A stretch of DNA of 64,000 bases from an uncultured delta proteobacterium (GCA_963796055.1 CAWCKH010000004.1:2336001-2400000); one strand, 5' to 3'; shown: positions 46,559 through 64,000, counted from the stretch's first letter. The notes: generated by a model not told the origin, from the letters alone. Numbers and translations: made by a program.

Positions 46559-46849
46559 CGCGGCGGGAAGATCGCCCTCTTCGGGGGAGCCGGCGTCGGG
46601 AAGACGGTGATCGTCATGGAGCTCATCCGGAACATCGGGATCGAACACCGCGGGGTGTCGGTCTTCGGGGGCATCGGAGAGCGAACGCGGGAAGGGAACG
46701 ACCTCTGGCTGGAGACGCAAAGGTCCGGCGTCCTGGAGCGCGCGGTGCTGATCTTCGGCCGGATGAGCGAGCCGCCCGGTGCCCGTTTCCGCGTGGCGCT
46801 CTCCGCGCTGACGATGGCGGAGTACTTTCGTGACGAGCAGAAGCAGGAT
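46559..46849 (+). pseudogene. atpD: Internal fragment of F1-ATP synthase beta subunit
   Basis: [17 protein letters not shown]...[10 protein letters not shown]...EPPGARFRV...TMAEYFRD; no N- or C-terminal parts. Confidence 0.9.
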
Positions 46850-47089
46850 CGCGCGGGACCGGGTGCTCGTCGTGACCCCGCGCTGCGCGCCCGCCTCCCG
46901 GGGAACCCGGTCCGCGCTCGGCGGCCCAGGAGACCTGCCGCACCTGGCGGCGGGAGCGCGTCGACTCTCGGGAAGCGATGGCGGGCTATCCCGAACCATG
47001 CGGCCCCTGGGCCTGGCCAAGCCCGGCAGCCAGAGGGAAAGTTCGTGGGGTGAGGGCCTTCCAGTCGCCTCGAAGGGAAGGAGGGAACC

Positions 47090-47437
47090 ATGAAGTTCAC
47101 CCGCTACTCCTTCGGCACGCTCCGTGTCGACGGGGACGAGTACGACCACGACCTCATCATCGACCGCGGCGAGGTCCGGGAGCGGGACAAGCGCCCGTCG
47201 AAGAAATACCGATCGCTCTACGGCCACACGCCGCTGTCGCTCGACGAGGACATCCCCTGGAAGTGCAAGCGCCTGGTGGTCGGGACCGGCGGGGGGGCGT
47301 TGCCGATCATGGACGAGGTCCGCCGCGAGGCGAAACGGCGGCACGTCGAGCTGATCGCCCTACCCACGGAGAAAGCACTCGAGCTGCTCGCCCACGGCTC
47401 CGCCCGGACCAACGCCATCCTCCACCTCACCTGCTAG
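47090..47437 (+). CDS. Mth938-like (DUF498) protein
   Basis: YSFG...DG..Y.HD, LVVGTG, LPT..A, LHLTC; strong RBS. Confidence 0.85.
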   Translation: MKFTRYSFGTLRVDGDEYDHDLIIDRGEVRERDKRPSKKYRSLYGHTPLSLDEDIPWKCKRLVVGTGGGALPIMDEVRREAKRRHVELIALPTEKALELLAHGSARTNAILHLTC

Positions 47438-47481
47438 GGATGAACGCTCCGGTGCTGACTCCGAGCAGTCACCGACCAGGG

Positions 47482-47940
47482 TCAAATTGCGCCGAGCTGA
47501 AGGAGCAGCTCTCGGTGTAATCGTCGGCGCTCGGAGCTGAGCGGGAGATCGGCGAGGATCAACCGGCGCTGAGCTTCCTCGTTCTCGGCGACCAGTCTCG
47601 CCAGCCGACCCAGCATCCGGGGAAGGTAGGTCGACTTCTCGTGGCAGAGCTGCGCCCAGACCCCCTCGGTCTGCTCCAGAATCCTCTCGCGGTTCCGGCG
47701 AACCCGACCGAGGAACTTCTCGAGCTCCCGGTTGTCCTCGCAGAGCACCAGCAACTTCCAGTCCGCGACCAGATGTCGCTCCAGCCTGACCCGGTACGCC
47801 CCGAACCGCTTCCTGGCCGTCTCGAACGAGCCAGCGGCGGCGAGCGTCCCGACGTCGACCAGGGCGACGCGTAGCTGGTGGTGCTCGGACTCGAGCTGTC
47901 GCCAGATTTGACTCTCGATGGAGGAGTCTGGAGTCCTCAC
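47482..47940 (-). CDS. Hemerythrin-like helical protein (degenerate ligand set)
   Basis: L..EH..L and LERHL pattern; later His/Glu ligands not evident. Confidence 0.45.
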   Translation of the reverse strand: MRTPDSSIESQIWRQLESEHHQLRVALVDVGTLAAAGSFETARKRFGAYRVRLERHLVADWKLLVLCEDNRELEKFLGRVRRNRERILEQTEGVWAQLCHEKSTYLPRMLGRLARLVAENEEAQRRLILADLPLSSERRRLHRELLLQLGAI

Positions 47941-47971
47941 CTACGTCGCCACCCTTTCACGAAGGACGTCG

Positions 47972-48138
47972 GGCAAGAACCACGCCAGCTGAAGAAACTA
48001 CCCGTGCGAACCGCGACGGACGGCAGAGCTTGCGCATGCAAGCAGGCGGCGACGCATGTCCTGCGCACTCGGTCCGGTTGGGCGATGGCACGCCCGGTCC
48101 GCCATCGCGGAGCCTGCGTCGGTGGTCCATCCGATGCA
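47972..48138. promoter_or_regulatory. Divergent sigma54 promoters with two CGCA-N5-TGCG-type enhancer sites
   Basis: Minus TGGCGTGGTTCTTGCC (47987-47972); sites 48021-48035 and 48052-48066; plus TGGTCCATCCGATGCA (48123-48138). Confidence 0.7.
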
Positions 48139-48178
48139 AATCATGGCTTCACTTCGCGCTTCGCTCTCGGAGGTCGCC

Positions 48179-48655
48179 ATGAGGCTGATGGAAATCATGA
48201 CCACGGACGTGCGGACCGCCTCGGCGACGGAAGATGCGGAGAAGGCGTTCCAGCGAATGCGTAATGGGCGAATCCGGCATCTCGTCGTGATGAACGGACG
48301 CCGGGTGGTGGGCGTGCTCTCGGAACGGGACGTCGGTGGGTCGCGCGGCAGCGGAGTGCGCGCTGGCAAGACCGTGGGCGAGCTGATGTCGGGCCAGGCC
48401 ATCACCGCCTCTCCGACGACGACCGTTCGTCAGGCGGCGAATCTGCTCCGCGCTCGGAACATCGGCTGCCTGCCCATCGTCGAGGATGGCGAGCTCGAAG
48501 GGATCGTCACCGTGACGGACGTGCTGGAGCTCCTGGGCAGGCAGACCCAGCTCTCGCCCACTGCCAGCTCCCGGTTCAAGCCGCAACACGGCTCCAAGTG
48601 GAAGCCGATTCGCCGAGTGGCGCGCTCCCAGCGTCCACCCTTGTTCCCGAGGTAG
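48179..48655 (+). CDS. CBS-pair domain protein
   Basis: IMTT.V, IRHLVV, GVLSERD, IGCLPIV, GIVTVTD; GGAGG RBS. Confidence 0.9.
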   Translation: MRLMEIMTTDVRTASATEDAEKAFQRMRNGRIRHLVVMNGRRVVGVLSERDVGGSRGSGVRAGKTVGELMSGQAITASPTTTVRQAANLLRARNIGCLPIVEDGELEGIVTVTDVLELLGRQTQLSPTASSRFKPQHGSKWKPIRRVARSQRPPLFPR

Positions 48656-48657
48656 TC

Positions 48658-62073: not shown

Positions 62074-62114
62074 CTTCAGGGTGGCGAATCGCTAACCGAG
62101 AAAGGGACACCGAC

Positions 62115-62768
62115 ATGAGAACCGATGCAGACCTGCAGAGGGCAGTGCAAGAGGAGCTCTCGTTCGAGCCGACCATCGTCGCCACCGACATCGGGGTCAC
62201 GGTCAAGAATGGGATTGTCACCCTCTTCGGGACGGTTCCTGATTACACCAGCAAGTTGGCGGCCGAGAGGGCGGCAGAGCGCGTCGCCGGCGTGCGTGCG
62301 CTGGCCAAGGATCTCACTGTAAAGCTGCCCGGAGAGAGTCGGCGCTCGGACTCGGAGATCGCCGAGGCAGCGCTGAAGGCGTTTGCCTGGGACGTGCAGG
62401 TCCCAGAAAAGCGTCTCACGTTGGAGGTACAGAACGGGTTCGTGACGCTCAAGGGTGAGGTGAACTGGTATTTCCAGAGGAAGGCGGCCGAGGAGAACGT
62501 ACGGAAGCTGACCGGTGTCGTCGGGGTCAGCAATCAGATCACGATCAAGCCGAACCTCACCGCAAAGGAGGTCCGGTCGAAGATCGAATCGGCACTTCAG
62601 CGGCGGGCAGTCCGTGATGCCCGGCAAATCATCGTCGACGTGGAGGGCCGAACGGTCACCCTACGCGGTGAGGTTCACTCCTGGGCGGAGCGGGAAGACG
62701 CAGAGCTCGCTGCCTGGGCGGCGGAAGGAATTTCCGAGGTGCGCGACGAGATCCGGATTCGACCCTGA
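62115..62768 (+). CDS. Triple BON-domain protein (OsmY-like, no signal peptide)
   Basis: Three I.V.V..G.VTL.G.V repeats. Confidence 0.92.
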   Translation: MRTDADLQRAVQEELSFEPTIVATDIGVTVKNGIVTLFGTVPDYTSKLAAERAAERVAGVRALAKDLTVKLPGESRRSDSEIAEAALKAFAWDVQVPEKRLTLEVQNGFVTLKGEVNWYFQRKAAEENVRKLTGVVGVSNQITIKPNLTAKEVRSKIESALQRRAVRDARQIIVDVEGRTVTLRGEVHSWAEREDAELAAWAAEGISEVRDEIRIRP

Positions 62769-62808
62769 GCCGCAAGGACTCGGGCTCATGCCCGGCAAGG
62801 AGATACCC

Positions 62809-63048
62809 ATGAGGGTCGAACAGCTCATGTCCCATCCGGTACGCACCTGCTCGGCGAGCGACATGCTCGATCGCGCGGCTCGAATCATGTGGGGCACGAC
62901 GTGGGGTGCATCATCGTCGAGTCGGATGGTCGGGGTAGATGGGATCATCACCGGTCGCGACATCTGCATGGCCGGCCGCTTCGCCGGCAGGGCACTCTGG
63001 GAGATCCCGGTTGGCGAGGTGATGTCCCGTCCGGTGGAGACGGTTCAC
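62809..63048 (+). pseudogene. Truncated CBS-domain gene with compensating frameshifts
   Basis: AGGAG + MRVEQLMS..V.TC; -1 near 62892 and +1 near 62933 hide HDVGCIIVESDGR; then GIIT.RDICMA; similarity stops near 63048. Confidence 0.7.
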
Positions 63049-63231
63049 TGGCCGAGATCTGTGACCCGACTGACTCGACGACAGATCTTTCCTGGCAGCG
63101 AAGGTGATTCGTCCTCGCGCTTAGCAATCGGCGCCATCACCTTCGCTGCGTCCGTCGCCTTGTTCCAGAAGCGCCTCGGCTAAGCGCCGCGTGAGCCCAC
63201 CCGCGCAAGTGAGCAGATAGGATCGCGCTCC

Positions 63232-63246
63232 ACGCAAGTCTTGCGC
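63232..63246. promoter_or_regulatory. Enhancer palindrome upstream of GlsB/YeaQ-like gene
   Basis: ACGCA-AGTCT-TGCGC; degenerate -24/-12 (CG-CATGCCTGAT-GC, 63287-63300). Confidence 0.55.
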
Positions 63247-63329
63247 ACAGGATTCGCAGACTGCGCCTGGTCTCCAGCACTTGCCGCGCATGCCTGATGC
63301 ATTCATGTGCGGAGGAAGAAGGTGTCGCC

Positions 63330-63608
63330 ATGACCATGTTCGCATTCCTGAGCTGGATCGTGCTCGGAGCGGTGCTCGGAGCGGTGCTCGCGACAGTCTG
63401 GAAGGAACGAGGACTTACCCTGGCCTGGGGGACCGCGATCGGCGGGGTCGGCGGAGTGGTGGGCGGGTTGATCGCTCGGTTCGTCTTCCCGGCCGGGGCG
63501 GTCTTCGACGGGTTGGCGCTGGCCGCTGCCCTCGTGGGTGCAGTGGTGGCCATGTTCATCGCCAAGTCCCGCGTGGAGCACACGGACCGGCCAGGCGCCA
63601 CGGTCTGA
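63330..63608 (+). CDS. GlsB/YeaQ/YmgE (transglycosylase-associated) stress membrane protein
   Basis: WIVLGA..G..A, G..GG.VGG, A.VGAVV; three TMs. Confidence 0.75.
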   Translation: MTMFAFLSWIVLGAVLGAVLATVWKERGLTLAWGTAIGGVGGVVGGLIARFVFPAGAVFDGLALAAALVGAVVAMFIAKSRVEHTDRPGATV

Positions 63609-63682
63609 TCTGAGCAGGCGCCCGGGCGACTGGAACGGGACGCTGACGGTGCTTGGCTTCGAAGGGGTGACGTGTCCTTCCG

Positions 63683-64000
63683 TCACCCCTTGAGCACGCC
63701 CCACGGTCGCAGACGGGCGACCTTGCGTGCGATGCCCGCCCGCGCGACGACGTCCACCACCCGCTCCACGTCCTTGTACGCCAGCGGCGCCTCCTCGGCG
63801 AGCTCGGCATTCGAAGGGCAGCGGACCACGATACCCTGCGCTTCGAGCTCCTTGCGCAGGGCGTGGCCTTCCACGCGCCGCTTCGCCGCGTGGCGGCTGA
63901 GCGCGCGCCCCGCTCCGTGGCAGCAGCTGCCAAACGAGACCTCGTCCGAGCCGGCCGTCCCCACCAGCACGAAGGTCCGCGTCCCCATGCTCCCGGGAAC
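63683..64000 (-). CDS. rtcB: RtcB RNA ligase, C-terminal part (5' end outside window)
   Basis: PGSMGT, S.CHGAGR..SR, EEAP.AYKDV..VV, L.P..V.KG. Confidence 0.95.

Follow-up and report, generated by a model that had tools for sequence, protein, structure and literature searches.

The right part of the window, the whole analysed stretch of 64,000 nucleotides, carries a block of stress genes of about 21 kb, arranged in about eight operons. These boxed operons are read here as a maintenance kit for low-oxygen growth arrest that is likely activated by NmpR and sigma54 (probability roughly 0.7). The block starts at 46.4 kb and ends about 4 kb beyond the window. The outer part contributes archease, CdsA, ChaB and ADC-like genes according to Pfam/NCBIfam profile searches (Table 1).

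Table 1. Genes, remnants and promoter signals of the block. Positions refer to the window or, where marked, to locus L001; G003, G006 and G010 are relatives.
Feature	Position	Strand	Basis
Left edge: atpD remnant from a second F1F0 ATP synthase operon, since deleted	46508..46849	+	86% to aa 146-259 of G010 AtpD
DUF498 protein	47090..47437	+	PF04430
Hemerythrin-like protein, likely without most iron ligands	47482..47952	-	ESM Atlas features: a cluster containing 16% Hemerythrin at 0.97, another containing 90% at 0.92; no Pfam match
Tandem NmpR-type boxes 16 bp apart (48021/48052), divergent sigma54-type promoters 47987 (-) and 48123 (+)	48021..48066		conserved in G006, G010
CBS-pair protein with basic C-terminal tail	48179..48655	+	PF00571 x2
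PRTase, N-half of widespread PRTase-hydrolase fusion	48658..49326	+	PF00156
Alpha/beta (DLH-like) hydrolase, C-half of the fusion	49313..49990	+	Pfam; 60-62% to Mycobacterium-genus fusions
M50 site-2 protease with CBS pair	50028..51230	-	PF02163 + PF00571
CBS-pair protein	51227..51619	-	Pfam
Perfect NmpR-type box upstream of CBS-M50 operon	51688..51702		box at same place in G003
PolX-PHP DNA polymerase	51988..53742	-	NF006375 above cut-off
NmpR-type box between divergent polX and hpf-csd	53817..53831		core conserved in G003, G006, two G010 copies
Chimeric hibernation-type factor, S30AE + cold-shock domain	53915..54502	+	PF02482 + PF00313
Class II ribonucleotide reductase deletion remnant, ~140 bp	54554..54697	-	TIGR02504 E=0.0026
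ATP-dependent DNA ligase, frameshift near 55958	54555..56531	-	intact 584 aa in G010
hsp20 NmpR-type box (56601) and sigma54 -24/-12 element (56690)	56601..56705	+	motif scans
Hsp20	56752..57243	+	PF00011
Extra ribose-phosphate pyrophosphokinase (Prs)	57301..58200	+	TIGR01251 above cut-off
79-aa Cys/His-rich protein	58231..58470	-	weak YHS match; 95-97% in G006 and G010
Decayed CBS gene, frameshift and deletion	58548..58815	-	mapping of intact ortholog from relatives
Sigma54-type element (58867) and tandem degenerate boxes (58916, 58947), cbs-groEL gap	58867..58961		motif scans
Third GroEL	59002..60618	+	TIGR02348; ~55% to genome's two other GroELs
SH3 + YkuD L,D-transpeptidase	60608..61906	-	Pfam
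BON gene NmpR-type box (62014) and sigma54 element (62058)	62014..62073	+	motif scans
3xBON (OsmY-like) protein	62115..62768	+	PF04972 x3
Decayed CBS gene	62788..63183	+	aligns with aa 1-87 of 165-aa G006 protein
NmpR-type box ahead of GlsB/YeaQ-like gene	63232	+	motif scan
GlsB/YeaQ-like membrane protein	63330-63608	+	weak PF04226
RtcB RNA ligase, 3' end in window	63683..64000	-	PF01139; whole gene L001:1683-3116
Archease, beyond window	L001:3127-3540	RtcB's strand	PF01951
CdsA-like, beyond window	L001:3545-4363	RtcB's strand	PF01148
ChaB, beyond window	L001:4384-4614	RtcB's strand	PF06150
Sigma54 element (L001:4657) and boxes L001:4705/4718 at head of chaB-cdsA-archease-rtcB set	L001	RtcB's strand	motif scans
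ADC-fold gene, right edge	L001:5016-5903	+	PF06314

The block is accessory and partly decayed. Its site is empty in seven of twelve genus relatives, and a second copy, decayed and mostly broken, resides on contig C7. The GC content is 0.65-0.69 versus 0.70-0.75 across most of the window, and GC3 is 0.84 versus 0.92. Most genes are intact. Losses in this copy comprise the ribonucleotide reductase (RNR), the ATP synthase operon and two CBS genes. G010 harbors a full F1F0 ATP synthase operon at the matching site and intact class II RNR genes (592/604 aa), above the TIGR02504 cut-off, at the position of the remnant. The ligase frameshift could be an assembly error. Gene order and content vary among G003, G006, G007, G010 and G001. 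Rfam yielded no match across 44-64 kb of the window, L001 and L273.

The gene list in a preliminary description of this DNA was borne out. Pfam/NCBIfam profiles identified the two intact CBS-pair genes, PRTase, alpha/beta hydrolase, M50-CBS, Hsp20, Prs, GroEL, 3xBON and RtcB, and Pfam resolved the HPF-type protein as a fusion of HPF (S30AE) and cold-shock domain. Two more S30AE genes are located elsewhere in the genome. Intact G006/G010 orthologs map to 58548-58815, 62788-63048 and 54554-54697, which confirms both decayed CBS genes and the remnant of the class II RNR. The hemerythrin-like call held at the level of fold by ESM Atlas features, but Pfam gave no match and the later iron-binding His positions, read against the hemerythrin motif, appear replaced, also in two orthologs. 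The protein thus likely lacks most of the His/Glu ligands that a di-iron, O2-binding four-helix bundle would have, which in hemerythrins are four His plus two Glu in the consulted part of PMC12753109. PolX-PHP, the frameshifted ATP-dependent ligase, the L,D-transpeptidase, DUF498, the GlsB-like gene and the atpD remnant had been absent from the earlier list. Fused forms of 420-480 aa predominate in the best 120 matches to the PRTase among longer proteins. Prs shares 37% and 34% with the two other Prs-like proteins of the genome. No groES was seen beside the third GroEL.

GCGCA-N5-TGCGC boxes with a perfect GCA-N5-TGC core and at most one mismatch occur eight times in the block, all of them intergenic (8/8), versus 1.2 expected; none of 500 shuffles reached eight. 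Eleven related stretches hold 26 sites versus 3.9 expected. Box cores are retained in relatives while the spacers change, and the boxes track operons through rearrangement. The M. xanthus NmpR site GCGCA-N5-TGCGC has been validated by EMSA and reporters; the regulon has paired boxes, preferably 14-15 bp apart, and NmpR bound just five of ten newly predicted promoters (PMC11841059, consulted sections). Here, pairs 16 bp apart lie at 48021/48052 and at 58916/58947, the second partner at the latter with three mismatches. A 13-bp pair at 56573/56601 has an imperfect core, and the remaining promoters carry one clear box instead of the usual pair. The groEL sigma54 element is located upstream of its boxes, and no element of at least 9/12 positions was found for the 63232 box. 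The genome contains rpoN, and sigma54 -24/-12 elements occur near boxes. Genome-wide, 20 of 87 intergenic boxes have an element (at least 10/12 positions) within 150 bp; among the controls, spacers of 3, 4, 6 and 7 gave 0, and positions drawn at random from intergenic DNA gave 34 of 1500.

The genes nmpR, nmpU (globin kinase), nmpT and nmpS lie together on a separate contig (C5:203458-207814), flanked by an NmpR-type box as well. The M. xanthus NtrC-like gene near nmpU matches this NmpR best (68.7% versus at most 50% for others); within the likely recognition helix, two residues differ between the two proteins. Boxed genes elsewhere encode PFOR, a 2-oxoacid:ferredoxin oxidoreductase, HypF, HypA, an MtrC-like cytochrome, ActD, USPs and PFK, and some have no oxygen link. 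The box motif repeated across the block suggests that NmpR, acting through sigma54, is the likely activator at low oxygen. A GAF/NorR-like sigma54 activator (L001:5981-7531) was rejected as regulator, being a core gene next to ahpC that also occurs at empty sites. The sigma54 wiring proposed earlier is supported by elements and boxes, but its likely activator is NmpR on another contig and not the adjoining gene. Of the genes anticipated past 64 kb, the archease is present, but this copy contains no USP gene and the adjoining activator belongs to the core. The supposed low-oxygen link gains support by inference. The consulted sections of PMC11841059 already draw a link between USPs under NmpR control and the dormancy regulon of M. 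tuberculosis.

By analogy to M. xanthus, NmpU would be silent without oxygen, NmpS would phosphorylate NmpR, and NmpR would open the boxed promoters via sigma54. Judging from the protein families, ribosomes may then be parked by HPF-CSD and broken RNA mended by RtcB-archease. Nucleotides would be derived from Prs, PRTase-hydrolase and, in relatives, the oxygen-independent class II RNR, while PolX and ligase would fill DNA gaps. Hsp20, GroEL and M50-CBS would handle proteins, CBS proteins may read the adenylate charge, and BON, L,D-transpeptidase and CdsA may adjust the envelope.

The likeness to DosR effectors, claimed earlier for the whole set, is partial on sequence comparison. The comparison used Mycobacterium-genus loci (L154-L159) in place of M. 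tuberculosis itself, except for the Rv2626c PDB entry. Identity to cluster genes of the genus Mycobacterium is 42-62% for RtcB, PRTase and hydrolase. Compared with this genome, such genes find their best matches in the island's RtcB, PRT, hydrolase, Prs, M50-CBS and Hsp20. However, the HPF gave no alignment with its mycobacterial counterpart (S30AE+CSD here, S30AE+2xS30AE_C there), the RNR architecture also differs, and Rv2626c ranks 35th of 44 PDB matches for the island CBS. For HPF and CBS, one-to-one orthology is thus not supported. The L158 block likewise combines RtcB and archease, PRT-hydrolase, class II RNR, M50-CBS, CBS, Hsp20 and an S30AE factor. In contrast to the DosR/DevR clusters with their LuxR-type DosR, the island has the PRT-hydrolase split, lacks USP, baeRF and WS/DGAT in this copy, and adds PolX, ligase, GroEL, BON and YkuD. 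It contains no Dev-like box versus 1.6-1.7 expected, with a crude pattern that is weakly enriched in Mycobacterium loci. Dev-box patterns gave no clear excess in these loci, so DosR control of them is not evident from such patterns; a further pattern gave 14 sites versus 10.1 expected over six Mycobacterium loci, its excess being confined to two Acidimicrobiales loci (14 versus 4.5, 8 versus 1.6).

Co-clustering in other phyla, proposed as a check, was found: 22 of 80 PRT-centred loci have at least three further markers, versus 1 of 270 tiles of this genome. FNR-type boxes occur in 7/10 marker-rich versus 0/10 marker-free proteobacterial loci (L035, presumably a cyanobacterium, was left out). 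Alphaproteobacterial kit loci carry three to eight TGA-N6-TCA boxes each, and the island none of this FNR-FixK type. In other Myxococcota, 18 of 20 loci with PRT/DLH/Prs are mini-modules without intergenic boxes, and 2/18 HPF-CSD loci from beyond the genus are preceded by a box; low-oxygen control is therefore not general for these genes. M50-CBS was discarded as module marker, since beyond the genus just one of 16 readable homolog loci (L022 not among these) contains a kit neighbour. RtcB homologs have archease as sole kit neighbour at most in 31/42 other-bacterial and 26/28 archaeal loci; the genome of L075 gave no RtcB match.

PolX, ligase, BON/OsmY, GlsB, ChaB and Hsp20 are general-stress genes. 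The block may accordingly be a general-stress or stationary-phase island in which NmpR or a sister activator recognises the boxes and the trigger is broad (energy stress, desiccation, starvation). The unboxed mini-modules and the numerous NtrC paralogs of the genome would fit, but this is improbable: the box agrees with the NmpR site validated in M. xanthus and also flanks the nmp locus, enzymes of anaerobic metabolism are among the co-boxed genes, and the alphaproteobacterial version of the kit has FNR-type boxes. Somewhat less probable still is a hotspot of separately acquired NmpR-boxed operons, now decaying, that cluster without joint function. The differing gene order among relatives, the broken genes here and on C7, and the rare kit neighbours of M50-CBS and RtcB point that way; the co-occurrence of the same families around PRT across phyla, the mostly intact genes and the conserved boxes speak against it.

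In its strong form the preliminary description implied a single mobile dormancy element moved between Actinomycetota and Myxococcota, which is highly improbable. The best matches to Mycobacterium-genus genes would agree with transfer, as would an island RtcB 50-52% identical to Mycobacterium-genus RtcB versus 30-32% to the genome's own others, and a G003/G010 segment of 97.7-99.2% identity versus 86.8% in the core flank. However, the nearest RtcB relatives are Myxococcota/deltaproteobacterial (66-71%), and in the gene tree, computed for RtcB as sole shared family and without rows L314, L334, L343 and L073, the window RtcB nests within Myxococcota, apart from the mycobacterial clade. The island HPF and RNR also have architectures other than the mycobacterial ones. 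Neither integrase nor transposase was seen among the genes scanned in the window and beyond it, no tRNA was seen, and the longest word shared by the island ends is nine bases. With the unboxed mini-modules of other myxobacterial genera, this argues against a portable cross-phylum unit. What the island has in common with DosR clusters probably stems from an old common gene pool that different oxygen regulators recruited separately.

The low-oxygen maintenance kit has precedents as a concept. The NmpRSTU regulon of M. xanthus shares the box, sigma54 dependence, the set of globin kinase, REC, hybrid kinase and NtrC proteins, and CBS, USP and hemerythrin targets, but its 7 promoters and 23 genes (cbb3 oxidase, hemN) are dispersed over the genome, unlike the accessory block. 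RtcB-archease, PRT-hydrolase, Prs, PolX, ligase, HPF-CSD, RNR, GroEL and BON are not named in the consulted regulon text (PMC11841059). The lxa locus of Burkholderia cenocepacia, likened to DosR by its authors, is also a low-oxygen cluster that varies between strains, carries repeated boxes between its genes and encodes alpha-crystallin, phospholipid-binding proteins and RNR. Its motif, TGA-N6-TCA (Anr/Fnr-like), is a different one, it has six USPs as well as PHA genes, and its induction and survival phenotype have been demonstrated, while those of the island are predictions (PMC3721108). The Streptomyces OsdR cluster (SCO0167-SCO0219) is a clustered dormancy-type regulon outside mycobacteria, but within Actinomycetota and under a DevR ortholog (PMC5069765). 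Chimeric HPF-Csp factors likewise fuse S30AE and cold-shock domains, beside a canonical HPF and in a variable locus; 'myxococc' has no occurrence in the main text as consulted (bioRxiv 10.1101/2025.11.04.686544).

A wider reading is tentative, at slightly under even odds: at least three oxygen-sensing systems with no relation to one another, namely DosR (Actinomycetota), FNR/FixK (Alphaproteobacteria) and sigma54-NmpR (this Myxococcaceae genus), may each have captured, independently, the same pan-bacterial kit for maintenance under hypoxia (PRTase-hydrolase, Prs, RtcB-archease, class II RNR, chimeric HPF, CBS, Hsp20, PolX). If true, function-unknown DosR genes would perform conserved RNA and nucleotide upkeep that could be studied in harmless soil bacteria. 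Regulator swapping over a common gene set would argue for a general role of RtcB-archease, PRTase-hydrolase and chimeric HPFs in low-oxygen growth arrest. For Myxococcota, a DosR-like effector block now has a named regulator, likely NmpR. The breadth of the NmpR regulon in facultative myxobacteria is a question left by the NmpR study (PMC11841059, consulted sections); a wider, anaerobic-leaning regulon with PFOR, hydrogenase maturation and a multiheme cytochrome is predicted here.

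The stress-gene island of the window carries eight boxes of the type GCGCA-N5-TGCGC, each with the GCA-N5-TGC core intact and no more than one mismatch, all intergenic, versus 1.2 expected from the genome density. None of 500 shuffles reached eight boxes, and 33 control patterns (other spacers, permuted half-sites) yielded at most two intergenic island sites each. The motif is the NmpR site of Myxococcus xanthus, a site that EMSA and reporter assays have validated (PMC11841059). Of the 87 intergenic boxes in the genome, 20 lie no more than 150 bp from a sigma54 element that matches 10 or more of the 12 consensus positions. 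The corresponding counts were 0 for control sites with spacers of 3, 4, 6 or 7, 0-6 (at most 15%) for permuted half-sites and 34 of 1500 for random intergenic positions. Relatives keep the box cores while the spacers vary, and the boxes travel with their operons through rearrangement. Eleven stretches, related to one another rather than independent, contain 26 box sites versus 3.9 expected. Three relatives retain the chaB box, which the decayed island copy on contig C7 has lost. The sigma54 wiring proposed in the preliminary description is supported by the elements at the boxes and by an rpoN gene in the genome; the activator is predicted to be NmpR, and this prediction is well supported.

The source genome has an nmpRSTU locus on contig C5 with nmpR and nmpU divergent. 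Its sole protoglobin gene lies in the nmpU-nmpT-nmpS run, opposite a divergent NtrC-type gene. This gene is the best match of the NtrC gene near nmpU of M. xanthus in L234 (68.7% versus at most 50% for others); two residues differ between both NmpR proteins in the likely recognition helix. The nearest named homologs of NmpU are mostly from Myxococcaceae (82-89%), and the host probably belongs to this family. Neighbors of nmpRSTU (read in L274 and L003) are hsp20, a gene for a DksA-type zinc finger, and a USP gene preceded by two tandem boxes with 15 bp between them. Myxococcus genomes (L234, L179, L222) harbor a PRT homolog (45-47%) within the nmpU locus; the copy in L234 lies some 2.3 kb upstream of the kinase gene.

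Family scans agree with the genes listed in the preliminary description: PRTase, alpha/beta hydrolase, M50-CBS, Hsp20, an S30AE-cold-shock fusion, Prs, GroEL, a 3xBON protein and RtcB are present in the window, besides CBS pairs. Further island genes are PolX-PHP, an ATP-dependent ligase, an L,D-transpeptidase, DUF498 and an atpD piece. The DNA past 64 kb (L001) contains the remainder of rtcB followed by the suspected archease, as well as CdsA, ChaB and an ADC-fold gene. The hemerythrin-like gene was assigned by a language model, and its later His ligands are apparently absent. Damage was located by mapping intact orthologs from relatives onto the island. Two CBS genes are decayed, the class II RNR is a 140-bp remnant, AtpD retains 114 codons, and the ligase has a frameshift, possibly an assembly error. 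The island copy in the window is eroding. The first CBS protein has a basic tail and 9znf_5 as best PDB match (E 1.9e-25); several of its top matches may be ribosome-bound CBS hibernation factors. The GroEL is a third type, which recurs with 66-67% identity in L144 and L032, adjoining PolX and HPF-CSD or Hsp20; the hosts are Sorangium and a relative that belongs to a different family of the order.

Coordinates of features in the window and in other loci
Feature	Position	Basis
Window, source genome	C4:2,336,001-2,400,000	
CBS pair (first)	48179 (protein 48179-48655)	family scan
CBS pair (second)	51227	family scan
Ligase frameshift	near 55,958	ortholog mapping
GroEL, third type	59002-60618	
nmpRSTU locus, source genome	C5:202720-208765	
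Protoglobin gene, source genome	C5:204,922	
Decayed second island copy, source genome	C7:1-7.4 kb	
PRT homolog, Myxococcus	L234:7043-7723	
Second F1F0 ATP synthase operon, relative G010	L276:8603-16131	
Type III secretion/flagellar-export-like set	L002:6000-13800	by eye from ORF starts

The island is an accessory block. Its GC content drops to 0.65-0.69, and the median GC3 is 0.84 versus 0.92 genome-wide. The site state was read in 8 of 12 genus relatives; in seven of the twelve the left and right flanks are at most about 2 kb apart, as read directly (G001, G003, G004, G007) or from match coordinates (G005, G006, G012). The right flank is a GAF/NorR-like activator adjoining ahpC. G010 carries a shorter version at the same site, together with a second F1F0 operon. 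In G001, G003, G006, G007 and G010, island operons occur at other places in changed order, and polX-hpf-RNR-ligase-hsp20 is present twice in G010. One G003/G010 segment is 97.7-99.2% identical versus 86.8% in a core flank, a pattern suggestive of either recent exchange or mis-binning. The genes scanned in the island region showed no integrase, transposase or tRNA, and any word common to both island ends is at most 9 bases long. The second F1F0 operon of G010 is complete and stands behind a degenerate NmpR-type box; the window keeps the atpD scrap only. The secretion-like set in L002 includes SctJ-, FliP-, FliQ- and FlhA-like genes.

The preliminary description equated the island genes with effectors of the mycobacterial DosR regulon, among them the RtcB Rv2631. 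The comparison was made with Mycobacterium-genus loci; M. tuberculosis itself entered only through the PDB entry for Rv2626c. An RtcB match at 1e-50 occurs in 5 of 81 Mycobacterium-genus genomes, at six loci. One of them, L158, assembles within 12 kb an Rv2632c-like gene, S30AE with two S30AE_C, RtcB, archease, a PRT-hydrolase fusion, baeRF2, WS/DGAT, Hsp20, an ATP-cone class II RNR, CBS and M50-CBS. Such PRT-hydrolase fusions, about 440 aa long, occur widely. The best matches of these loci in the source genome lie in the island for RtcB (50-52%), PRT (42-48%), hydrolase (60-62%), Prs (43-44%), M50-CBS (28-29%) and Hsp20 (38%), but not for CBS and HPF. The mycobacterial CBS matches another gene, Rv2626c ranks 35th among 44 PDB matches of the island CBS, and the island HPF did not align with the mycobacterial type. 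Members of the DosR regulon include Rv0079, Rv0570, Rv0571c, Rv2030c, hspX, Rv2625c, Rv2626c and Rv2631 (PMC3177182; annotations in PMC7753917).

Co-clustering across phyla was surveyed around PRT. Around the best 80 of at least 527 confirmed PRT homologs, the hydrolase was found 54 times, Prs 21, RtcB nine, Hsp20 seven, and HPF, PolX and RNR six times each. Three or more markers occur in 22 of these loci and none in 17; the background for three markers is 1 of 270 tiles in one genome, that of the source. A Bradyrhizobium locus (L084) has ten. RtcB- and M50-CBS-anchored loci mostly lack the kit and count against a fixed module: no marker besides archease accompanies RtcB in 31 of 42 loci of other bacteria and 26 of 28 of archaea, and M50-CBS has a kit neighbor in 1 of 16 loci outside the genus. 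Twenty picked hydrolase-anchored loci of other Myxococcota genera form mini-modules with PRT (11), Prs (6), PolX (2) and RtcB (1), 18 of them without any intergenic box; a box precedes 2 of 18 non-genus HPF-CSD loci. FNR-type boxes were counted in 25 proteobacterial loci. Three or more are present in 7 of 10 loci with at least two extra markers versus 0 of 10 without extra markers; the three gammaproteobacterial loci among the marker-rich ten do not have them. The three tested boxes (Dev, FixK, NmpR) are not enriched in the marker-rich clusters L043, L046, L057, L060, L298 and L306 (Binatia-type, delta, Gemmatimonadales), which hints at a further regulator there. In a FastTree phylogeny of 97 RtcBs, the clade that the window protein forms with its close relatives (support 0.999) lies among Myxococcota and is separate from a Mycobacterium-Nonomuraea clade (1.0); the root is weak.

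A portable dormancy module was overstated: RtcB nests among Myxococcota, and no mobility gene was seen among the genes scanned. Clustered DosR-like hypoxia loci beyond mycobacteria are known, namely lxa (PMC3721108) and OsdR (PMC5069765). HPF-Csp chimeras are described in bioRxiv 2025.11.04.686544. According to PMC11841059, NmpR targets in M. xanthus include CBS, USP and hemerythrin, the USPs are likened to the M. tuberculosis dormancy regulon, and the Anaeromyxobacter regulon is stated as unknown. Neither an island-type block under NmpR nor a regulator swap appeared in titles and abstract starts, a search largely outside subscription papers.

Low oxygen would silence the globin kinase NmpU, and phosphorylated NmpR would activate about eight island operons through the predicted sites. 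Their products may serve the upkeep of ribosomes, RNA, nucleotides, DNA, protein and envelope in growth arrest. Outside the island, 32 targets are predicted (box plus sigma54 score of at least 9 within 260 bp). Pfam names PFOR, a 2-oxoacid:ferredoxin oxidoreductase, HypF, HypA, an MtrC-like cytochrome, ActD and flavodoxin, besides two USPs, CBS and PFK; some targets have no oxygen link and six no family. With PFOR, hydrogenase maturation, a subunit of alternative complex III and an MtrC-like multiheme cytochrome among its members, the predicted NmpR regulon points to a facultatively anaerobic genus of Myxococcaceae.
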